64,000 nucleotides of DNA, from contig OZ024740.1 of NCBI GenBank assembly GCA_964016885.1, positions 146,568,001 to 146,632,000 of the forward strand, given 5' to 3'. The position numbers and the translations under genes are program-made. Of the stretch, positions 15,761 to 64,000 are shown one piece after another. The notes under the pieces are model-generated. The model had not been told where the DNA came from and did no database searches. It saw only the letters and a list, made by a program, of their open reading frames with translations. The stretch's first letter is position 1. Each line of letters opens with the position of its first letter. This DNA is from Eledone cirrhosa (lineage: Eukaryota).

Positions 15761-16234
15761 ATTTAAAAGAGAGAAATTTACTGTTAAGAATTATTTCTCC
15801 TTTACCATGAAATTTATCTAGACTCTAGTTACCAGTTTCGAAAAATTACATTAACATATACAAACAATATGTACAGAAATCGTTTACGGTTACTCTCAAT
15901 AAAACCCTATCTTTAAGTGCTCTTGTTTTAATTATTCATTATACAAAATACGAAGTGATATTCTTCTCTAACGAACTGAAGTCATATATAGCATGAATTA
16001 TAGCACAAATATAAGATTTAATCGGTATTACTTGCAGGGCAGCTACTTTGCAGACATTCGACGGTTGAATTCTGAAATACAATGGAAACGCGGGTTTTGG
16101 AAGCTTGGTATACATTAAGAATATATCAAGGACTTGAAGCTGCCATGAGATTTTGATTAATATAAATGCTTTTGATTGATATGAATTAATCAGTTCTACA
16201 CCGAAGCCCAATTTACCATAAATGCTTCTTACGA

Positions 16235-17185
16235 TGGCAGGCGGACCCGGCTGTCAGTGGAGAATCCACCTCGTCATTCTATAGAGGGCTGGTGGTTAGC
16301 AGGTGCGACGACGCCCTCGGAGAAGCCCTAGGCATGGAGGAAGACGAACTGGACAACCTGTTCGGTAGGACATTCAGCCGGGACCCATGGATAACTTCCA
16401 GAGGTCCCTGGCCTGGTAGTGCTACCGAGGGGCTCTGCCCGTTAGAGAAAGGCTCTACAGACACGGGCCCGGGTAGGGACCCCTCGAAAAAGATCTGTCC
16501 CAGATGCGTGTGCGACGAGGAAACCGTTGCACACGCTTTGGTACACTGCTCGGGCATTGCCGATCTGTGGGGCTATGTCGAACAACTGCTGTCAAGGGTG
16601 GGACCGATCCGGTTGACCACCGAGTCTATTGTAACGATCAAGCCGCCTCCCCTCTTCAAAAACGAAGGAGAGGCGGTGTTTCTGTGCGTAATGGCCATGG
16701 CGAAAGAGGTTGTATGGTGGACGCGTCTGAAAGGACTGAGGTCAGACACCTTTCTCTCTGGCCAACAACTGGTCCGTTTCTTCCGATATCATTTCGGAAG
16801 AAGGATCAGGATGGAGAGAGAGGTGCTGCACCCCAGCCGTTTTTATGAAAGATGGGTGAAAGTGGCGAGAATGGCTCGTGTGAATGGACCTTCACTCTAC
16901 ATCAGACTATAGGTGAGGAAGATGAAAGACCAAGGGAGCATCCCTCTCTGTGCTCCTGAGGAGAAGGGTTGCACACTTTTTTTCGGGGGTGTGTGCGAAC
17001 CCCCAAGGCGCCTCCTCCCTAATGAGGATTTTGTTACAAAATTTATTTTGTTATATTTTATTTTATTTTTATACTTTTATATCTTGTTATTGCCTCCTCC
17101 ATATTGAGGACGCCTTTACATGTAAACTCCCCCCTTTGTACTTGTCCCACTTTTGATGCCCTGGTGGCAAATAAAAAGAAAGTTA
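16235..17185 (+). mobile_element. 5'-truncated Tx1-clade LINE (ORF2 C-terminus plus 3' UTR)
   Basis: ORF 16292-16912 is highly similar to 38334-39026 (CPRC..ETVAHALVHC zinc finger). Shared 3' UTR ending AATAAAAAGAAAG. Confidence 0.93.
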
Positions 17186-18515: not shown

Positions 18516-18546
<31 letters not shown>

Positions 18547-18555
18547 GAAATATAT
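18200..18555. repeat. TA/CA compound minisatellite (same unit as 17355-17640)
   Basis: Direct reading. Confidence 0.9.
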
Positions 18556-18810
18556 GGGCATTTCTCTGTTTGTCTGTCTGTCTGTCTGTCCTTCCCTAAA
18601 ACTCAAATGTAGGTGCTACAGAAATATTAGCTTCCCCTTCCTTTCTCCACTTTGGTACTACCAAGAGAAACACTGTCGCTATAGAAACATTACCTTCCCC
18701 TCTCCACTGACTTTGGTCACTGAGGCCGAGGGAATCGCTGGTTGCTATAGAGACACCTTGCACAAGCCAGAAGTAACCAGTTCGAGGCGGTTCTGACTTG
18801 ACACCATGCC

Positions 18811-19006
18811 AAGGACCATTTGAAGAAGGTTGCCATTGAATTTGTGGTTTGAAGAAGGTTGCCATTGAATTTGTGGTTGTTGCTGCTGATAATAAGGACC
18901 ATTTGAAGAAGGTTGCCATTGAATTTGTGGTTTGAAGAAGGTTGCCATTGAATTTGTGGTTGTTGCTGCTGATAATAAGGACCATTTGAAGAAGGTTGCT
19001 GCTGAT
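18811..19006. repeat. 83-bp tandem repeat (~2.3 copies) with internal 29-bp duplication
   Basis: AAGGACCATTTG recurs at 18811, 18894 and 18977. Confidence 0.92.
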
Positions 19007-19371
19007 GAGGTAATTTATTAATCAGATTGCGCAGTTCCATAACCTACGTTTGATTTGTTCAATTTTTTCTTCAAATTTTTTTTAAAAAATTTCTTATTGA
19101 AAAAATATAAATAATAAAATAAGGTTAGAAATTTAAATACAATTAAATACGATTTAATTTCCATTTCCAGCAACCAATGTCCAGTGTTCAATTTCATGAA
19201 AAAATTGGAAATAATTCAAAAAATTGAAGTTTAACTTTTGAACATTTGTTTTGACAATAAAAAAATATTTCCTTATTCACACCTAATGGTATGATTAAAA
19301 TTTCATAGGAATATTTTTTTCTAACCGCCAATTATTTAAATATTATTAAAAATAAATAAAAAAAAAAAAAA

Positions 19372-20144
19372 ATGGAAGATTTTGTGGATTTTTTTACCAC
19401 CTTCCAAGCCTTAAACACTAATTCTCGCGAATTTGTGTTTTGTAACGACCCTCAGGACGCTGCTATTGTTGATTCCAATAGTGCCTGGTATTCGAATATG
19501 TTAGTATACAATTTTTTGAATAAAATTAAGGCGCAATTAGAGCTGCCAAACAAAATTTTTTTCGGCTTCGGCCCATATTATTTTGGGCTAATGAGTCTGC
19601 CTCTGTTGGCGTTATTTGCGACAGTCACCATTTCTTGACTTTCAAGTTTGGTTATGCAGACTCATTACCTGTGCTTGAGCTGGCAGATTCGGGTCTTCAC
19701 TTAAAAATTTTTGACTTTTTTGATCGGATTAAATATTACCTTGATGATGGACACAGGGCTACAGTGAAAAAAATTGGAATTATGAATGGATTCAAAACTT
19801 TTTCCTTGACCCAAAATTTCGTTTTTAGGTTCAGGGTTCTAAATGTGCAGCAGCAGACTAATGGAACTGATTGTGGTCTTTTTGCAATTTTATATTCTTT
19901 GATATGGGTTCTAAATCCTAATCCCACAAATTTTGAGTTTTCCACTCAGAATCAAATTAATCTGCTCAGAAAATTTTGGAGTCTAATTTTTTAAATCGCA
20001 GGGAAGTTGTGAATCCCATTTTATATGAGAATGTTTTTGTTTTCGACCCTATTAGAAAAACTCTTTCTAATTTAAATCAACTAGGTCTGGCTGCACACCT
20101 ATCTGACCCCTTGATGATAAATCATTATGGAAAATCATTATGGA
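19372..20144 (+). pseudogene. Ulp1/C48-like cysteine protease domain upstream of RepHel, frameshifted
   Basis: WYSNMLVYNFL, then VGVICDSHHFLT..YADSL..VQQQTNGTDCGLFAI, giving the His-Asp-(Gln)-Cys order of CE-clan proteases. Confidence 0.72.
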
Positions 20145-23100
20145 AAAACCTCAACCTTTCTGTCCAACCCGGTTTTAGCTCAAATCCCAACTATAAAAGG
20201 CAATAAAAAGCCAATTATAATTGAGGAAGATCAAAAAAGTCCAAAAATAACCCAAACTGGAAACGAATTGCCTGGAATCACTGCAGACGTATTGCCAGCT
20301 GCGGTAGTTTCGCCTCCAGCAGATAAAACTTTGCCGCCTGCAAAACCGACAGAAGATTCCAAACGCAAGCCCAAATATTTTTTGGATCCAGTTTTGGTTG
20401 CTGAGTATATGGCTCAGCATAAGTGCACCGAAGCCTCTGTGAAAACAGCTTTACGCAGAAAAGCTCAAAAGGCCTCTGAAACCGAGTCGCAAAGAAATAA
20501 GCGACTTGAAAAGCAGCGAAAAGATATGCAGCGTTCTAGGGGTCAGGAGTCTAAGGACTCAAAAGGCATAAGGAAGGAAAAAGACCGTGAGCATAAAGAT
20601 GCTACTCGGCAATCTGAGACTACCGAAGAACGGGAAATCAGATTGAACAAGGACAAAGTTGGGCACTCTGAGGCCTATTACAATAGGACCTTCAAAAAGG
20701 ACCCAAAATACTTCCGTATTGCTTTTAAGCCCATAGATGAGGTGGATTTCGACTCGGAGATAATCCACCTCAAATATAAGGACAATCCGTGTGAGCATTG
20801 CGGGGCGTACAAATTGCCCTTAGAGCCACCTGGATTGTGTTGCATGAATGGCAAGGTTAAGCTCCCTGAATTTGAACGCCCAGGGGAGGAAATCGCCAGT
20901 TTATATGAGGGTAATGACGAATATGCAAAAATGTTCGCTAAATTCTCAAGGTGTCTTAACACAGGATTTGCCTTCAGTAATATGCACTGTACTGAGCTTC
21001 CAATCGGTGAAGTGAAGCCGAGTATGAAAATTCATGGGTTTTCGTATCAAACGATGGTCCCACTTGAGCCGCAAGCAGGCCAAAGACCTAGATATGCGCA
21101 GGTGCACATCTTTGATAAGGAGACCCAAAAACTCGAGAGGGAAAAATTTGAGTTCGAGCCTCGGTACCGTGCAATTCTGAACTATATCCAGGCTAAGTTC
21201 AATGATTTCATCCCGGATGAGAATATTCTATCAAGAACTTTCAAAACGGGATACGAAATGCTCGAACAGATGCCCGAATATAGGCTGGTGTTAGGGGATT
21301 GTCTGCCTGCCAATAAAACTCATCTCCTCCCTACGGTGTCTGAAATAGCGGGGCTCTACCAAGAGAAGGATATTAAGGAACTTGGGAGGGTCATTTTAGT
21401 GAGAAAACGGGCAGGCAAAGAAGGATACGTCCGTGTTGACTTCCTAAGCCCGTTTTATGAACCCCTGGGCTATCCCCTTATTTTCAATTATGGCCAGAAT
21501 GGGGGGAGCCGTTGGAACCCGAAAACAGAAACTGGTCATAAAGAAACTTTGTTGCAGTATATCAAGTACTAGTTAATGGTCCGGGACAATTTTTTCAACC
21601 CTCTTATATTGAGCGGTAATCTGTTGCACCAGTATGCGATAGACATGAAAATGCGTCTGGATTACATTAATTTCCAGTTTCAGGTTAAGCATCAGCAAAG
21701 GATTAAGGGGTCATATAGGTTTGAATCGGTCGACACTCTAAAGGATTGTGAACATCCTGCAGAGGTTGGAGTCGGCGTCGTCCTGTTCGAATCGACTCCT
21801 GGGACTCCAAAGTGGTACAAAAAATTGTACCGAGATTCAATGGTCAGAGAATTTGGATGTCCAGACCTTTTTGTGACCATGACCTCCAATCCTAAACTGC
21901 CTGAAATAGAAGAATTATCTCGCAATAATAAAGATGAAACTGCAAAATTTAGGCCTGATCTAATTTGCAGGAGTTTCATGGAACGTGTGAGGCTTCTTTT
22001 TGATGTGAAAATCAAAAAGAGAGGTATTTTTGGTAAATGTGTTGCATACACTTACAAAATAGAATTTCAGAAAAGAGGCCTCCCACATGTCCACGCTTTA
22101 ATTTGGTTGGCCGAGGCCGATAAGATTTCATCCACGGAGGATGTTGATAGTCTCATTAGCGCTGAAATCCCGACAGGGGATACCAAAAATCAGAAGCTGG
22201 CCTATAATTTTGTGATTACAAAAATGATCCACGGTCCTTGCGGTGTTTTTAATCCCCGGTGTCCTTGTATGAAGCAGTGTAAAAAGTCCCCAAACGGAAC
22301 TTCTTGCTCTAAGATGTTTCCGAAGGACTATAACAATGCGACCAATTTTAACGAGGCTAACTACTCTAAATACAGGCGTAGAACGCCTGATAATAATGGT
22401 GGACAGGGGGAAATTCATCAGAAAGGTAAAAAAAAGTAAAAAAAAAGGTAAAAAAAAAGCAGGGATGTTGTTCCACACAATCTTTTTCTTGGGATCATAT
22501 TTCAGTGCCACATTAACGTAGAGGTGGTGGCCGGGGTCACTATATTTCAATATATTTTTAAATATATACTAAAAGGTGCCGACCACATCATCTATGAGGT
22601 GGAAAAGGTCTGTGATGACCAGGGGAACCCTGTAGATGACCAGGAAAAGGACGAGGTTAGAATATACCTTAACGGTAGGTATATGTCCAGCGTTGAGGCG
22701 ATGTGGTGGTTACTCTGCCTGGCCCAATACGGAATGTACCCCTCGATCCTAAAGCTGGATATCCACCTCGAAGGGAAACAAAAAGTTTTTTATGACCCCA
22801 AGTTAGCTAAACCCGATTCAAAAACCCTGGAAAAACTATCCAAGACGAAATTGACCGAATTTTTCACTCTCAATCGAGAAGATGAAAAGGCCAACAATTT
22901 TTTGTATTTGGATATTCCGAAATTTTACGTCTGGATGGTCCAAGAAAGGTTTTGGAAGCGTCGAGTACAGGGCGAGAATGATCCTGAGTTCGGCATGCTC
23001 AGGGGTGATCAGATATCCTGCATGCCGAACATTTTACCAAACTCAGGTGGTAATCAGGAAACCTTCGCCCTCTACCTTTTGCTTTTAAAAACAAAAGGTC

Positions 23101-24949
23101 CCAAGTGCTACACCGATTTCAGAACAGTAGGCGATCAAGTTTTTCCAACCTTCAACGAGGCAGCAGTATTCCGCAAGCTCATGGAGGCGGACAACGAAAT
23201 CAGTTTAGTATTGCATGATGCTCAGATTTCGATGAGCCCTCGCATGATGCGGAGGATGTTCGCAATGCTTATCCACCTTTGGAAGCCGACTGACGCCCTG
23301 TCACTGTGGAATGACCACAAAGACTGGATGTCACATGATTTAGCCCGAGCAGACCCCACTGCTGATGTGGATATCATACACAATAGGGCATTGCACCAGG
23401 TTTACGCTTAACTGCTAAATTACGGCACCAAAATGGATACTTGCAACCTTCTAAGGCCAATCGAGGAGGTTAGAGTGCCCGAGAATCAGAACATTGGGAT
23501 TTCTTATGAGAGCACAGCAAGCTCGGAGTCCATTTTGGAGGTTGAAAACTCCCTGAATGCTGATCAGCGGGCGCTCTATGACTCCCTATTGGAATCGGTG
23601 AGGCAGAATTCGGGAAAAAACCTTTTCGTGGACGCACCCGGGGGAACTGGCAAGACTTATCTTATCAATGCGATAGTAGAAAAGGTTGCCAATGAGGGTT
23701 ACAAGGTGACTGCTTGCGCCTCATCTGGCATTGCGGCACTATTGCTTAAAGGCGGCACAACCTTGCACTCAAGGATGAAGTTGTCTTTGAATCCGCAAGA
23801 TAAAACAGCGATTAGTATCCAGACGGGATCAAAACTCGCAAAGGAACTTGCGAAACTTGACCTGATTATTTGGGATGAGGCCTCCATGTTCAGTAGGGAC
23901 CTGATGGAGTTTTTGGATAAAACTCTAAGATTCGTCCGCGGAGGGGTGGAACCATCCAAGAAAACCTTCGGAGGTGTCACCATGCTACTCTCCGGCGATT
24001 GGCGACAAGTTCTCCCAGTTGTTCCTAATGGAGAGCGACCACAAATTGTCGCTTCTACTTTAAAAAATCACCCATCGTGGGATACTTTCAACATTTTCAA
24101 GTTGAATACAAACATGAGGGTCAACGGGGTCGATCAGGCTTCCATTGATTTTAAAGCCCTCCTTTTGAGGATTGGGGATGGTGTCGCCAATCGCAGACAG
24201 GACAATCGGAGGACCCACGACTTTGAAGTTCCCCCTCAGTTTCTCATGACAGGTGACCCATTGATAGATAGGATATACCCTAATGTGTCAACTAGGTTGA
24301 GCGAGAATGATTATGCGAATTGGGTGACCGATCGCGCAATCATTACTCCCACGCATAAGGATGTAGACGAGATCAATCAAAAAGTCCTTGACAGATTGCT
24401 CGGTAGGGAAATAGTAATCCCTTCGTTTGATCGTAACCACGAGCAAACAGACCGAAAGCATCATGTTTCAGTGGACACTTTGAACTCGATAGTTTTTCCT
24501 GGAATGCCGGATCACCTTTTGAAACTGAAGATAGGTGCTCCGGTTATTCTGCTCAGAAACATATGTCCCGCCGAGGGACATTGCAACGGTACTCAATACG
24601 TTGTAAAAAATATCCACCCACGAATACTCGAACTCGAAGTAGCGGTGGGCCCTCGGAAGGGACAATTGTTTCATTTGCCTAGAATTGAGCTTCATAGCGA
24701 AGAAGGGAAGGTTCCATTCGATTTTTACCGGAAACAGTTTCCTGTTAAAATATCGTTTGCGATGACCTCCAACAAGGGCAGACCATTACCCATGTTGGTA
24801 TAAGCTGCCTGAATGAGTTCTTTTCGCATGGCCAGTTCTATGTTGCAATAAGCAGGGTAACAAATCTGGCAAATGTTACGATTTTAGTTCCCGAAAACCA
24901 GAATGGTGTAGTAAAAAATGTTGTCTTTCCTGAGGTTTTTAGGAACTAA
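20127..24949 (+). pseudogene. Helitron RepHel (HUH Rep plus Pif1-family helicase)
   Basis: Zn finger CEHC..CC; PDLFVTMT; EFQKRGLPHVH (HUH); YIFKYILKG; DAPGGTGKT; IIWDEASM; GDWRQVLPV; FSHGQFYVAISRV. One frame with stops at 21570, 22437, 22449 and 23409, a frameshift at ~24777, and a terminal TAA at 24947-24949. Confidence 0.96.
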
Positions 24950-24969
24950 AGTGTAACAATGTATTCATC

Positions 24970-25091
24970 GTTTATGCCAAACTGATGAGTCCTAAAAAGG
25001 ACGAAATACCTTATTTTTTAAAAAACGAAATCGAGGAGAAACAACCTTTCTAATTCTGATTTTGTTAAAAATTGAGGTATCTTTGGCTAAC
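24970..25091 (+). ncRNA. Type I hammerhead ribozyme in the Helitron 3' UTR
   Basis: Stem I GCCAAA/TTTGGC; core CTGATGA (24982-24988); stem II GTCCT-AAAA-AGGAC; GAAA; stem III TACCTTA/TGAGGTA; cleavage triplet ATC ending at 25081. Confidence 0.88.
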
Positions 25092-26016
25092 AAAATTAAA
25101 TTCTAATTAAAATATTAATAGGAAAAAAATTCAAACAAAGTGCTGATTGACTCGCTTGGTAATTGACTCTGTTGATAATTGGCTCTCTTGATAACTCTCT
25201 TGATGCTTCTCATCTCTTGGTAATTTAAAAATATTAATTAAAAATAATAATTATTCAACAAATTATTATATAAGCTTTATAAAAAAATAGATATACAAAA
25301 CTGAGATACAAAAATAGATATACATATCTGTCTGTCTGTGTCTGTGATGCAGCAACTTTTGATCCGCAAAGCCGATTTTCAATTTTTTTTTTGTAATCAA
25401 CCATAAATTTATCAGGGCAGGTCGGCACAATATTGCGAATAATTGACAACCGCTTTTTTTAGGTAAAAAATCGATAAAACTGACAATGGGTCAAACTTTG
25501 TACAGGTTTCTTCCAATCTCTCACTACAGGCTGTGTGTGTCGACATCTGTTTTTAATGATGGTTCATATATCCTATTTCTTTGAAATGATGGTTCATATA
25601 TCCTATTTCTTTAACATTTTTTTACAGAGCTTCTTCTAGCATAAGACCTGTAATTGAGCGGCACAGGTTTTCAAAAATCGATATTGCGGCCTTTGGAGAT
25701 ATATCAAAATTTGGATTATTTTTGCCAATGTTCGTGATTAAGTATGACAAGAGTTATCTTTCTCCGCGACCAGCGTCTCCGTTTTCGAACGCTGGTTTAC
25801 ACACACATACATTAAAAGTTATTTAAGTTTAAGCCATCACGCGCTTTTAATGTTGTAAAAAAAATGTTTACCGGATAACGGATAACACCGAGCTCACATA
25901 TTAATTATTTCGCTGGAATAGTGCCTAAAGTTTTCATGTTTACATAAAGTACGTATTTCTTCTATGTATTCAAATTTACTTTGTTTACTTTAATGAGCTA
26001 CATGGAAAGCTACTTC

Positions 26017-26044
26017 ACCCGTCCAAAGGACGGGTACTAGATAG
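26017..26044 (+). terminator. Helitron 3' terminal hairpin and end motif
   Basis: 8-bp GC-rich stem, then CTAG (26037-26040) / ATAG (26041-26044). Confidence 0.8.
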
Positions 26045-26867
26045 TCTACTTATAATATATAATGGGCATTTCTCTGTTTGTTCGTCTGTCTGTCTGTCTG
26101 TCTGTCCGTCTGAAATTGACACACCTATAGACGCGGTTTCAAATCTCTATGCTTTTCAAATTCATCTACTTATAATATATAATGGGCATTTCTCTGTTTG
26201 TTTGTCTGTCTGTCCGTCTGTAAAAAATGCCAAGGAAACAAATAGACGCGGTTTCAAATCTCTATGCTTTTCAAATTCATTACATTAATCTTTATTTATA
26301 CGTTTCGCTTTACGAGTGTTTCGACTTACGAGTGTTTCGGCTTACGAGTGTTTCGGCTTATCATTATATATCGGTGGATTGGCAGTATCGGTAGAGTCGG
26401 ACGCCATGCTTTCCAGCATGGTTACGTCCCTTTACGGTCTGAGTTCAAATCCCGTCGAGGTTAACTTTGCCTTTCATCCTTACGGGGTCGATAAAATAAA
26501 GCACCAGTAATACACTGGGTATTTGCTGGCCTTGTGCCAAAAGTAGAAACAATTATATATAAACGTTTCTATTTCCATCGTTTTATCGTAAACGTTTATA
26601 TATTTCCATCGTTATATCATAACCTTTATGTCTCATAACGTTTATATTTCCGTCACTAATCGCTTTTTCTCCTTTTTCGTTTTAACATATATTTATTTCA
26701 AAGATTTCACCGTATAGATAACATATATATTTATACATGCATAAAAGACACACCGAGAGACGGTGAACATGTGGTGCCGAAAACATTTCTCATCCAAATC
26801 TCAACAATATCAGTATATATACTAGATTTGCTAGCAGAAAACCGCCCACCGGGTGGTTTTCTGCTAG
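26045..26867 (+). mobile_element. Non-autonomous Helitron with duplicated 5' end
   Basis: TCTACTTATAATATATAATGGGC..(CTGT)n at both 26045 and 26165. 3' hairpin plus CTAG at 26867. Confidence 0.7.
26372..26554 (+). mobile_element. tRNA-derived SINE (family A)
   Basis: Same head, body and tail as 17891-18082. Confidence 0.85.
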
Positions 26868-57950: not shown

Positions 57951-58314
57951 CCACATGAACGGTTTCCCAACCCTCCACACTGAACAAGGATTTGTCCACC
58001 CTCTCGGATAAACCATGTAATGTACATGCGAACCTAACACAACATCCCCACACTTCGGATACCACCCCAAATACAGGTACAAACAACGACACCATGCATT
58101 ATGCACGGACACGCTGTAACTGCAGAAACCCCAACAACTGTCCCTTAAATGGAAAGTGCATGTATGGGAACATGATTTACCAGTGTGTGGTCAGAACTAA
58201 TTTGGAGACGTATAAGTTTGTGGGTGCAACTTTTTTTAAGAAGAGATGCTATGTGCACTCACTTTCATTCAAAACTTCCGGGCTGAGTAAATCAATCGCC
58301 CTCGCAAAAAACAT
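57949..58314 (+). mobile_element. Inverted duplicate of the Penelope-like fragment 56829-57194
   Basis: ORF 57992 is nearly identical to ORF 56787-57152 on the opposite strand. Confidence 0.9.
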
Positions 58315-61300
58315 TTTAGCCAAATTAATTCCACCTCATTCAAACAACAATACATTTTACCCAAATTAATTCCACCTCATTCAAACAACAATACATTTTA
58401 CCGAAATTAATTCCACCTCATTCAAACAACAGTACATTTTACGGAAATTAATTCCACCTCATTCAAACAACAATACATTTTACCCAAATTAATTCCACCT
58501 CATTCAAACAACAATACATTTTACCCAAATTAATTCCACTTAATTCAAACAACAATACATTTTATCCAAATTAATTCCACCTCATTCAAACAACAATACA
58601 TTTTACCCAAATTAATTCCACCTCATTCAAACAACAATACGTTTTACCCAAATTAATTCCACCTCATTCAAACAACGATACATTTTACCCAAATTAATTC
58701 CACCTCATTCAAACAACAGTACATTTTACCCAAATTAATTCCACCTCATTCAAACAACAATACATTTTGCCCAAATTAATTCCACCTCATTCAAACAACA
58801 ATACATTTTACCCAAATTAATTCCACCTCATTCAAACAACAGTACATTTTACCCAAATTAAGTCCACCTCATTCAAACAACAATACATTTTACCCAAATT
58901 AATTCCACGTCATTCAAACAACAATACATTTTACCCAAATTAATTCCACCTCATTCAAACAACAATACATTTTACCCAAATTAATTCCACCTCATTCAAA
59001 CAACAATACATAATACCCAAATTAATTCCACCTCATTCAAACAACAATACATTTTACCCAAATTAATTCCACCTCATTAAAACAACAGTACATTTTACCC
59101 AAATTAATTCCACCTCATTAAAACAACAGTACATTTTACCCAAATTAATTCCACCTCATTCAAACAACAATACATAATATCCAAATTAATTCCACCTCAT
59201 TCAAACAACAATACATAATACCCAAATTAATTCCACCTCATTCAAACAACATTACATTTTAGCCAAATTAATTCCACCTTATTCAAACAACAATACATAA
59301 TACCCAAATTAATTCCACCTCATTCAAACAACAATACATTTTACCCGAATCAATTCCACCTCATTCAAACAGCAGTACATTTTACCTAAATTAATTCCAC
59401 CTCATTCAAACAACGGTACATTTTACGCAAATTAATTCCACCTCATTCAAACAAAAATACATTTTACCCAAATTAATTCCACCTCATTCAAACAACAGTA
59501 CATGTTACCCAAATTAATTCCACTTCATTCAAACAACAATACATTTTACCCAAATAAATTCCACCTCATTCAAACAACAATACATTTTACCCAAATTAAT
59601 TCCATCTCATTCAAACAACAATACATTTTACCCAAATTAATTCCCCCTCATTCAAACAACAATACATAATACCCAAATTAATTCCACCTCATTCAAACAA
59701 CAATACATTTTACCCAAATTAATTCCACCTCATTCAAACAACAATACATTTTACCCAAATTAATTCCACCTCATTCAAACAACAGTACATTTTACCCAAA
59801 TTAATTCCACCTCATTCAAACAACAGTACATTTTACCCAAATTAATTCAATCTCATTCAAACAAACATACATTTTACCCAAATTAATTCCACCTCATTCA
59901 AACAACAATACATTTTACCCAAATTAATTCCACCTCATTCAAACAACAATACATTTTACCCAAATAAATTCCACCTCATTCAAACAACAATACATTTTTA
60001 CCGAAATTAATTCCACCTCATTCAAACAACAATACATTTTACCCAAATTAATTCCACCTCATTCAAACAACAGTACATTTTACCGAAATTAATTCCACCT
60101 CATTCAAACAACAATACATTTTACCCAAATTAATTCCACCTCATTCAAACAACAATACATTTTACCCAAATTAATTCCACCTCATTCAAACAACAATACA
60201 TAATACCCAAATTAATTCCACCTCATTCAAACAACAATACATTTTACCCAAAATTAATTCCACCTCATTCAAACAACAATACATTTTACCCAAATTAATT
60301 CCATCTCATTCAAACAACAATACATTTTACCCAAATTAACTCCACCTCATTCAAACAACAATACATTTTACCCAAATTAATTCCACCTCATTTAAACAAC
60401 AATACATAATACCCAAATTAATTCCACCTCATTCAAACAACAATACATTTAACCCAAATTAATTCCACTTAATCAAACAACAATACATTTTACCCAAATT
60501 AATCCCACCTCATTCAAACAACAGTACATTTTATCCAAATTAATTCCACCTCATTCAAACAACAGTACATTTTACCCAAATTAATTCCATCTCATTCAAA
60601 CAACAATACATTTTACCCAAATTAATTCCACCTCATTCAAACAACAATACATTTTACCCAAATAAATTCCACCTCATTTAAACAGCAATACATTTATACC
60701 GAAATTAATTCCACCTCATTCAAACAACAATATATTTTACCGAAATTAATTCCACCTCATTCAAACAACAATACATTTTACCCAAATTATTTCCACTTCA
60801 TTCAAACAACAATACATTTTACCCAAATTAATTCCACCTCATTCAAACAACAATACATTTTACCCAAATTAATTCCACCTCATTTAAACAACAATACATA
60901 ATACCCAAATTAATTCCACCTCATTCAAACAACAATACATTTAACCCAAATTAATTCCACTTCATTCAAACAACAATACATTTTACCCAAATTAATCCCA
61001 CCTCATTCAAACAACAGTACATTTCATCCAAATTAATTCCACCTCATTCAAACAACAGTACATTTTACCCAAATTAATTCTATCTCATTCAAACAACAAT
61101 CCATTTTACCCAAATTAATTCCACCTCATTCAAACAACAATACATTTTACCAAAATTAATTCCACCTCATTCAAACAACAATACATTCTACCCAAATTAA
61201 TTCCACCTCATTCAAACAACAATACATTTTACCCAAATTAATTCCACCTCATTCAAACAACAATACATTTTACCCAAATTAATTCCACATCATTCAAACA

Positions 61301-64000
61301 ACAATACATTTTACCCAAATTAATTCCACCTCATTCAAACAACAATACATTTTACCCAAATTAATTCCACCTCATTCAAACAACAATACATTCTACCCAA
61401 ATTAATTCCACCTCATTCAAACAACAATACATTTTACCCAAATTAATTCCACCTCATTCAAACAACAATACATTTTACCCAAATTAATTCCACATCATTC
61501 AAACAACAATACATTTTACCCAAATTAATTCCACCTCATTCAAACAACAGTACTTTTACCCAAATTAATTCCACCTCATTCAAACAACAGTACATTTTAC
61601 CCAAATTAATTCCACCTCATTTAAACAACAATACATTCTACCCAAATTAATTCCACCTCATTCAAACAACAATATATTTTACCCAAATTAATTCCACCTC
61701 ATTCAAACAACAATATATTTTACCCAAATTAATTCCACCTCATTCAAACAACAATACATTTTACCCAAATTAATTCCACCTCATTCAAACAACAGTACTT
61801 TTACCCAAATTAATTCCACCTCATTCAAACAACAGTACATTTTACCCAAATTAATTCCACCTCATTCAAACAACAATACATTTTACCCAAATTAATTCCA
61901 CCTCATTCAAACAACAATAAATTTTACCCAAATTAATTTCACCTCATTCAAACAACAATACATTTTACCCCATTTAATTCCACCTCATTAAAACAACAAT
62001 ACATTTTACCCAAATTAATTCCACCTCATTCAAACAACAATACATTTTACCCAAATTAATTCCACCTCATTCAAACAACAATACATTCTACCCAAATTAA
62101 TTCCACCTCATTCAAACAACAATACATTTTACCCAAATTAATTCCACCTCATTCAAACAACAATACATTTTACCCAAATTAATTCCACATCATTCAAACA
62201 ACAATACATTTTACCCAAATTAATTCCACCTCATTCAAACAACAGTACTTTTACCCAAATTAATTCCACCTCATTCAAACAACAGTACATTTTACCCAAA
62301 TTAATTCCACCTCATTCAAACAACAATACATTCTACCCAAATTAATTCCACCTCATTCAAACAACAATATATTTTACCCAAATTAATTCCACCTCATTCA
62401 AACAACAATATATTTTACCCAAATTAATTCCACCTCATTCAAACAACAATACATTTTACCCAAATTAATTCCACCTCATTCAAACAACAGTACTTTTACC
62501 CAAATTAATTCCACCTCATTCAAACAACAGTACATTTTACCCAAATTAATTCCACCTCATTCAAACAACAATACATTTTACCCAAATTAATTCCACCTCA
62601 TTCAAACAACAATAAATTTTACCCAAATTAATTTCACCTCATTCAAACAACAATACATTTTACCCCATTTAATTCCACCTCATTAAAACAACAATACATT
62701 TTACCCAAATTAATTCCACCTCATTCAAACAACAATACATTTTACCCAAATTAATTCCACCTCATTCAAACAACAGTAAATTTTACCCAAATTAATTCCA
62801 CCTCATTCAAACAACAATACATTTTACCCAAATTAATTCCACCTCATTCAAACAACAATACATTTTAACCAAATTAATTCCACCTCATTCAAACAACAAT
62901 ACATTTTACCCAAATTTATTCCACCTCATTCAAACAACAGTGCATTTTACCCAAATTAATTCCACCTCATTCAAACAACAATACATTTTACCCAAATAAA
63001 TTCCACCTCATTCAAACAACAATACATTTTCCCCAAATTAATTCGACCTCATTCAAACAACAATACATTTTACCCAAATTAATTCCACCTCATTCAAACA
63101 ACAATACATTTTACCGAAATTAATTCCACCTCATTCAAACAACAATACATTTTACCCAAATTAATTCCACCTCATTCAAACAACAATATATTTTACCCAA
63201 ATTAATTCCACCTCATTCAAACAACAATACATTTTACCCAAATTAATTCCACCTCATTCAAACAACAGTACTTTTACCCAAATTAATTCCACCTCATTCA
63301 AACAACAGTACATTTTACCCAAATTAATTCCACCTCATTCAAACAACAATACATTTTACCCAAATTAATTCCACCTCATTCAAACAACAATACATTTTAC
63401 CCAAATTAATTTCACCTCATTCAAACAACAATACATTTTACCCCATTTAATTCCACCTCATTAAAACAACATACATTTTACCCAAATTAATTCCACCTCA
63501 TTCAAACAACAATACATTTTACCCAAATTAATTCCACCTCATTCAAACAACAGTAAATTTTACCCAAATTAATTCCACCTCATTCAAACAACAATACATT
63601 TTACCCAAATTAATTCCACCTCATTCAAACAACAATACATTTTACCCAAATTAATTCCACCTCATTCAAACAGCAGTACATTTTACCTAAATTAATTCCA
63701 CCTCATTCAAACAACGGTACATTTTACGCAAATTAATTCCACCTCATTCAAACAACAATACATTTTACCCAAATTAATTCCACCTCATTCAAACAACAAT
63801 ACATTTTACCCAAATTAATTCCACCTCATTCAAACAACAATACATTTTACCCAAATTAATTCCACCTCATTCAAACAACAATACATTTTACCCAAATTAA
63901 TTCCACCTCATTCAAACAACAATACATTTTACCCAAATTTATTCCACCTCATTCAAACAACAGTACATTTTACCCAAATTAATTCCACCTCATTCAAACA
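58311..64000. repeat. 41-bp satellite array (~139 copies, continues beyond the window)
   Basis: Consensus CATTTTACCCAAATTAATTCCACCTCATTCAAACAACAATA; period 41 (e.g. 58321 to 58362). Confidence 0.99.

Follow-up and report, generated by a model that had tools for sequence, protein, structure and literature searches.

An HLE1 Helitron in a decayed state, no longer able to encode its protein, is located at about positions 18547 to 26044 of the 64,000-nucleotide stretch of Eledone cirrhosa DNA analyzed here (referred to as the window; the parts of the element described below lie on the forward strand). The domain encoded upstream of its RepHel transposase resembles the C48/Ulp1-like proteases of clan CE, an identification that is marginal but concordant across the sequence comparisons. 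As judged from copies in other organisms, the protease is part of the family and is most likely encoded in one reading frame with RepHel. The family protein, of about 1,875 to 1,900 amino acids, would consist of the C48/CE-clan protease, a linker, basic STPR-like repeats, a zinc finger, an HUH Rep domain and a PIF1 helicase. We tentatively propose, at somewhat less than an even chance for the reading as a whole, that this single HLE1 reading frame with an N-terminal C48 domain produces a tethered isopeptidase for ubiquitin-like modifiers that favors SUMO, of which we infer the activity, the substrate and the benefit.

Structure of the element

The element is set in repeat-rich animal DNA. It contains a RepHel gene of the HLE1 type, with an HUH/Y2 Rep part (Pfam Helitron_like_N, E 3e-37) and a PIF1 helicase (Pfam PIF1, E 8e-64). 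The Rep part (21573 to 23408) contains motif 1 at 21864, the HVH motif at 22086 and the two-Tyr motif at 22551, and the helicase (23412 to 24949) contains the Walker A motif at 23640, a 7-nt loss near 24771 and the stop codon at 24947 to 24949. An assignment to Helentron/HLE2 was rejected, since AP endonuclease and DUF6570 were without a Pfam match in any piece and the best relatives were RepHels of the HLE1 type.

The 3' end (26017 to 26044) shows the hairpin followed by CTRR that is expected of Helitrons, here an 8-bp hairpin at 26017 to 26035 (DNA fold -8.7 kcal/mol) and CTAG at 26037 to 26040. The left terminus is eroded into a microsatellite, and TC-starting versions of it were found only at 26045 and 26165, to which the sequence at 18537 to 18593 is 72% similar. 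The latter two represent additional left ends of the same Helitron family, arranged head to tail after the right end (within 26045 to 26280). The 5' region (18547 to 19371) comprises the eroded end beside the microsatellite, an 83-nt tandem repeat at 18811 to 18976 and an AT-rich leader. The repeat is exact and includes an inner 29-nt repeat (18811 to 18999), and it is followed by a possible GT-AG intron, noted by eye, at about 19011 to 19170. The coding part occurs only once in the 64-kb window. The window also contains a SINE that flanks the Helitron and that we take to resemble octopus SINEs, a LINE fragment at 16190 to 16912 (zf-RVT, E 0.0095), and a long satellite at about 58300 to 64000 with units of about 42 nt and an extreme C-over-G skew (-0.95).

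Three frame changes are located between the ATG codon at 19372 and RepHel, and the sequence is here described as pieces A to D. Piece A (19372 to 19584), the N-terminal part of the protease, is an open frame that starts with this ATG codon and includes Trp 19486 of a W..N..V..FL motif. Piece B (19590 to 19977) holds the putative catalytic core, and piece C (19973 to 20122) is an open frame with the end of the protease and the start of the linker. Piece D (20124 to 21569) extends from the Pro-rich linker to the N-terminal part of RepHel, ends at the stop codon at 21570, and contains, in this order, a SIM-like stretch at 20211, STPR-like repeats at about 20472 to 20680 and a zinc finger at 20790. 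The STPR-like basic repeats have 23-residue units and matched Pfam STPRs weakly (E 0.37). Their number varies, with one extra 69-nt (23-codon) unit in the copy from run X5 and matching loose ends in run X4.

Identification of the protease domain

The comparison to Peptidase_C48 suggested in the initial annotation gave a match above the cut-off: piece B (query 19530 to 19991) scored 21.0 bits against Pfam PF02902 (cut-off 20.7, E 3.3e-4), over a segment limited to 57 residues (95 to 151) around the Cys, corresponding to positions 152 to 206 of the 217 in the profile. Piece B was also assigned by Atlas to C48 clusters (0.92, recognition 3112), with concordance among 10 of the 10 best family matches, and all 9 sequence matches in PDB at E ≤ 10 were to SENP1, SENP2 or Ulp1-like proteases (best E 0.04). 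A search among 1.84 billion representatives yielded a single true distant relative, P0005, which contains tandem C48 domains (Pfam E 1.7e-8) and aligned with piece B in a pairwise BLAST comparison with an E of 2e-8. Two of the 4 matches in that search, P0002 and P0004, were discarded as artefacts of summed scores over Ig-like and 98-aa repeats.

Piece A on its own matched no profile, and its Atlas result was uninformative (recognition 1265, best 0.82). Piece B was found in none of 127 candidates among longer proteins, which is weak evidence, and no relative was recovered when metagenomes were scanned for piece B or for the RepHel alignment, or when viral sequences were scanned for piece B. The single-sequence structural model of piece B, made from a query without the N-terminal lobe, was poor (pLDDT 50). 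With this model, Foldseek returned no rows at E ≤ 0.001 and CE-clan enzymes crowded the weak rows. The best VIA-align match to the same low-confidence model was an unrelated protein (Z 4.4), a result that is uninformative.

The four motifs listed in the initial annotation, W..N..V..FL, SHHFLT, YADSL and a DCG motif, are all present in the order of clan CE, with the Trp at 19486 in the frame of piece A and the others in the frame of piece B. His 19629 (HHFL), Gln 19854 and Cys 19872 (QTNGTDCG) are all intact in the latter frame, and the pattern H..DS..Q....DCG occurs only once in the six frames of the 64-kb window, which is at the protease locus. The residues follow the order His-Asp-Cys, with the oxyanion Gln six residues before the Cys and an Asp that we infer from two Asp-Ser candidates, located 10 residues (YADSL, 19659) and 19 residues (LADSG, 19686) after the His. 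The corresponding spacing is 15 residues in P0005 and 17 in SENP5, and in the strands predicted by the piece B model YADS falls in the turn of a hairpin and LADS closes the strand that follows. Because of the spacing in these relatives and the predicted strand positions, the catalytic Asp is probably Asp 19686 of LADS, and YADSL was rejected as being too close to the His.

The domain shares with the cellular SENP/Ulp1 deSUMOylases the order His-Asp-Gln-Cys, the Q-x5-C spacing and the QQ.NG.DCG motif. It differs from them in that the likeness is limited to about 45 residues around the Cys, in a shorter N-terminal lobe, and in that the catalytic His is followed by Phe, whereas SENP5 and P0005 have Trp (HW); the Trp of the Gly-Gly tunnel, which in a strict sense defines the SENP/Ulp1 proteases, is thus missing from its place directly after the His. 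The Trp-to-His spacing, with the Trp motif of piece A assigned by eye, is 53 residues, as compared to 52 and 57 in P0005 and 66 to 68 in cellular SENPs. The residues that contact SUMO, at the positions that we presume for them, are not recognizably kept.

Candidate substrates

SUMO is considered the first choice of substrate because of the SENP-like sequence matches, the SIM-like stretch in the linker and the need for SUMO in transposon silencing in flies. A SIM pattern was also present in 123 of 2000 shuffled sequences (6%), which makes this a weak indication. For flies, SUMO is reported to be a requirement for piRNA-guided transposon silencing (10.1101/533091, PMC10363806).

The main alternative is that the same fusion carries a deubiquitinase or deNEDDylase that guards RepHel from K48-linked degradation as a stand-in for OTU or VTD domains. 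We regard this as doubtful, with ubiquitin and NEDD8 ranked as a close second after SUMO. The Phe after the catalytic His and the compact Trp-to-His spacing, both unlike cellular SENPs, would be consistent with such an activity, and so would the position of the domain, which is equivalent to that of the OTU domains in other Helitrons. In the weak Foldseek list, CE-clan deubiquitinases appear alongside the SENPs, with CidB and OtDUB at ranks 2 and 3. Furthermore, the VTD domains of Helitrons, which are the only Helitron protease domains assayed in the literature found, are reported to cut ubiquitin and NEDD8 and not SUMO (PMC9741609). The sequence matches in PDB, however, are SENP/Ulp1-like, and all of the Foldseek rows have E above 0.001 and derive from the model with a pLDDT of 50. 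A preference for SUMO is the reading that we tentatively retain.

Breaks and reading frame

The initial annotation placed three small lesions between the protease and RepHel. The first was described as a shift in a T-run at about 19556 to 19562. The frame does change between pieces A and B, but the main lesion (break 1, 19584 to 19589) is a net loss of 16 nt, for which record 9 of X4 and record 8 of X1 each contain 16 additional letters. Of these, 14 are placed at about 19584 to 19589 by X4 and 15 by X1; the remaining 2 and 1, respectively, lie outside the listing, and the single letter in X1 could fall at the T-run, which was rejected as the main first lesion. The shift described at about 19965 to 19992 corresponds to a genuine break (break 2, 19970 to 19977) and consists of a 31-nt deletion at 19972 to 19977, where X4 has 31 and X5 has 32 additional letters. 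The 13-bp tandem duplication (20119 to 20131 and 20132 to 20144) is exact, as was said, and none of 300 shuffled sequences yielded one. It is however not the lesion itself, because X4 keeps the repeat as 12 and 13 letters; instead, the frame change at break 3 comes from a single additional letter at 20123, which X4 lacks.

Repair of the three lesions was expected to yield a whole protein of about 1850 amino acids. This did not hold, as RepHel has five further breaks, consisting of stop codons at 21570, 22437, 22449 and 23409 and the loss of 7 nt near 24771, where X4 and X5 each have 7 additional letters. With the indels of X4, the reading frame corresponds to 1,875 amino acids, to which the additional basic repeat found in X5 would add about 23.

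To place the breaks in the context of the family, we compared 4 of the 13 listed runs over positions 19020 to 25200; coverage in X1 and X6 is confined to a minor share of the element, and their gaps are uninformative. A 1,405-nt contig in X4 from organism B (record 9) covers 19384 to 20644, from the protease to the RepHel reading frame. It differs from the window by +16 near 19585, +31 near 19975 and -1 at 20123, and the net difference of +46 brings pieces A, B, C and D into one frame. The continuity is read from the indel lengths in this one contig, for which the absence of stop codons is presumed (40 of 815 substitution rows are listed, and a further 29 indel rows and 177 pieces lie outside the listing). 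Records 10 (+6) and 11 (-9) of X4 are in frame through Rep into the helicase, with compensating indels across the stop codon at 21570, and the depth is even (77 to 79) from record 9 into these two records. The record 9 contig ends in the basic repeats, and none of the listed contigs connects the protease with the HUH site; beyond the repeats, continuity is read from piece D of the window, which is itself open.

Additional copies cover shorter parts of the junction. Record 8 of X1 joins piece A to piece B in frame with its 16 letters, and P0003, a 76-aa database peptide encoded on a different contig, begins in the Cys region, continues through break 2 and ends in piece C. The other of the 2 listed contigs that extend from the protease to RepHel, record 15 of X5, has a net difference of +31 and is off frame by one letter. 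The surplus letter is located in a T/A run at break 2, which suggests that the X5 copy is itself broken, and there is no deletion at 20123.

In total, copies of the protease were identified under three or more organism labels (A, B and C), for which reason we consider it a feature of the family; a capture private to this copy, which the initial annotation named as a refuting case, is thus not what was observed. The proposal that a C48 protease is fused to the N-terminus of RepHel is probable; it is supported by the CE-clan domain, by its presence across the family and by the in-frame X4 contig, and is weakened by the off-frame X5 contig. As a separate observation, contigs of X1 that cover the leader and the beginning of the protease (19020 to 19647) have depths in the hundreds to thousands, where depth is not copy number. 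A loose end at 19647 in X1 resembles another Helitron left end, and may mark a high-copy non-autonomous derivative with a protease fragment.

It is improbable, in our judgement, that the protease is a family feature encoded by a separate reading frame, ending at the stop codon at 20204 to 20206, with RepHel starting at an ATG codon at 20127 and with X4 as a sub-lineage or a misread. This ATG codon is present in the frame of piece D, and the X5 contig lacks an in-frame connection. The GC content of the protease pieces is 33% to 36%, as compared to 41% to 46% in RepHel, which would also fit, weakly, with a later acquisition of the protease. The nearest RepHels, P0007, P0008 and P0001, begin only 34 to 84 residues before the zinc finger, but they are encoded on contigs of 4.7, 3.6 and 5.0 kb and therefore do not test the N-terminus. 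HELIANO places C48 outside the RepHel reading frame (PMC11417382), but says the same of OTU and STPRs, and these share a reading frame with RepHel in P0033, P0026 and P0031. Set against the even depth and the in-frame indels of X4, and given that the X5 copy is itself broken, a single reading frame is the arrangement that we prefer.

Relatives of the RepHel protein

To examine how common the protease is, we selected 121 RepHel proteins, consisting of the best 120 of 750 matches and P0001. None of the 121 had PF02902 on record, a phmmer match to the protease or P0005, or a C48 motif. At least 250 residues precede the zinc finger in 30 of the 121, and an OTU motif was identified there in 5. Two relatives, P0009 and P0025, have N-termini of 480 to 650 residues with an OTU-like look but without a Pfam OTU call. 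In a quick tree, built from 43 of the rows without an outgroup, the window protein clustered with P0007 and P0008 (SH-aLRT 96) and then with P0001 (99), apart from the rows with an OTU motif. Long branches lead to two of these groupings' members.

Since none of these relatives carry C48, the domain is dispensable for Helitrons at large, and it could be a spent or neutral passenger, captured in frame as a C48 fragment with no role in transposition. The long branch that separates it from all known C48 proteases, with one true distant relative, would agree with this. However, the His, Asp, Gln and Cys residues are present, the listed X4 changes (21 of 48) spare all four, and the domain occurs in copies under at least three organism labels. 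We consider a passenger even less probable than a separate reading frame, and retain a probably functional protease in the active copies.

A hammerhead fold in the 3' part

The minimum free energy fold of the sequence at 24976 to 25087, in the 3' untranslated part, is that of a type I hammerhead ribozyme. Stem I is formed by 24976 to 24981 and 25082 to 25087, the core begins at 24982 and extends to 25006, and the long stem-loop III closes a structured loop of 65 nt; the fold predicts cleavage after position 25081. The Rfam model HH9 matched with an E of 5e-5 and 27.3 bits, which is below its gathering score of 52 bits, and at the gathering score there were no Rfam matches in the 64-kb window. 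Record 14 of X4 and record 21 of X5 both extend from the end of the helicase into the hammerhead core; the similarity to X4 is lost within loop III, at 25013. No paper on a hammerhead in a Helitron was found in our literature search, and the hammerhead may be a more unusual part of the element than the protease.

Comparison with other transposons

Zisupton elements carry Ulp1-like domains. Ginger1 transposases contain either OTU or Ulp1 domains (PMC2836005), and C48 domains are found in DNA transposons also in Mutator, the Kaonashi/Vandal MULEs and oomycete Cryptons (PMC2836005, PMC13317346, PMC3212892). Unlike the Helitron in the window, they are reported to be DDE or tyrosine-recombinase elements in which C48 is C-terminal or encoded by its own gene.

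Among Helitrons, the closest arrangement is that of the OTU-RepHel and VTD-RepHel fusions, in which a cysteine protease precedes basic repeats, a zinc finger, Rep and the helicase in one reading frame, as in the family studied here (PMC9741609, PMC6431247; P0033, P0052, P0097, P0104 and P0025). The protease described here would belong to a different clan, CE, with the order His-Asp-Cys, and it is not accompanied by the AP endonuclease of the Helentrons in which the VTDs, with activity on ubiquitin and NEDD8, are found (PMC9741609).

The domain itself is not new to Helitrons. HELIANO (2024) counts Peptidase_C48, the same Pfam domain, as one of 20 domains that Helitron-like elements stably carry, and assigns it to those 'encoded in different ORFs' (PMC11417382). 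The preprint has the same wording, and the supplement tables give the domain name only, without hosts or position. In the window Helitron the domain is instead N-terminal and apparently in frame. A literature search with limited coverage of subscription journals and Repbase Reports, and confined to the text and tables of HELIANO, found no in-frame N-terminal C48-RepHel fusion. The novelty of the 'unusual Helitron architecture' of the initial annotation was overstated and lies in the fusion, which may be a new arrangement of parts known in other transposons, with an earlier description being possible.

Proposed function and implications

In the active copies of the family, the protease would occupy the slot held by OTU or VTD deubiquitinases in other Helitrons and would act as an isopeptidase that removes ubiquitin-like tags, with SUMO as the first choice. 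The fused DNA-binding parts would tether it to the DNA of the element, and the substrates could be RepHel itself or host chromatin or repair proteins at that DNA, so that silencing or turnover would be eased during transposition. Self-cleavage of the protease from RepHel, in the way that the CE-clan proteases of viruses process precursors (the adenovirus/Polinton style), had also been suggested and would suit an N-terminal position ahead of a long flexible linker, but is the least probable of the readings, because Gly-Gly is absent from the 272 residues of the linker in the window and the OTU domains at the equivalent position point to deconjugation in trans. The preferred reading as a tethered isopeptidase can be extended to an active deSUMOylase that the transposase brings to the element's own DNA, where it locally undoes SUMO-dependent heterochromatin silencing, in a family with a self-cleaving hammerhead in the 3' UTR throughout. 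We consider this full version unlikely, although less so than a separate reading frame.

The surprise is limited, because the copy in the window is dead and C48 has already been catalogued in Helitron-like elements. Unrelated transposons have nevertheless repeatedly gained proteases of the ubiquitin family (OTU, VTD, UCH and Ulp1), with a role that is left open in the literature found. A C48 domain in the OTU slot of an HLE1 transposase with one reading frame would be a clean test case for distinguishing proteasomal turnover from SUMO-based silencing. If the reading is true, the fused deSUMOylase would represent a transposon-encoded counter-defence against SUMO in animals.
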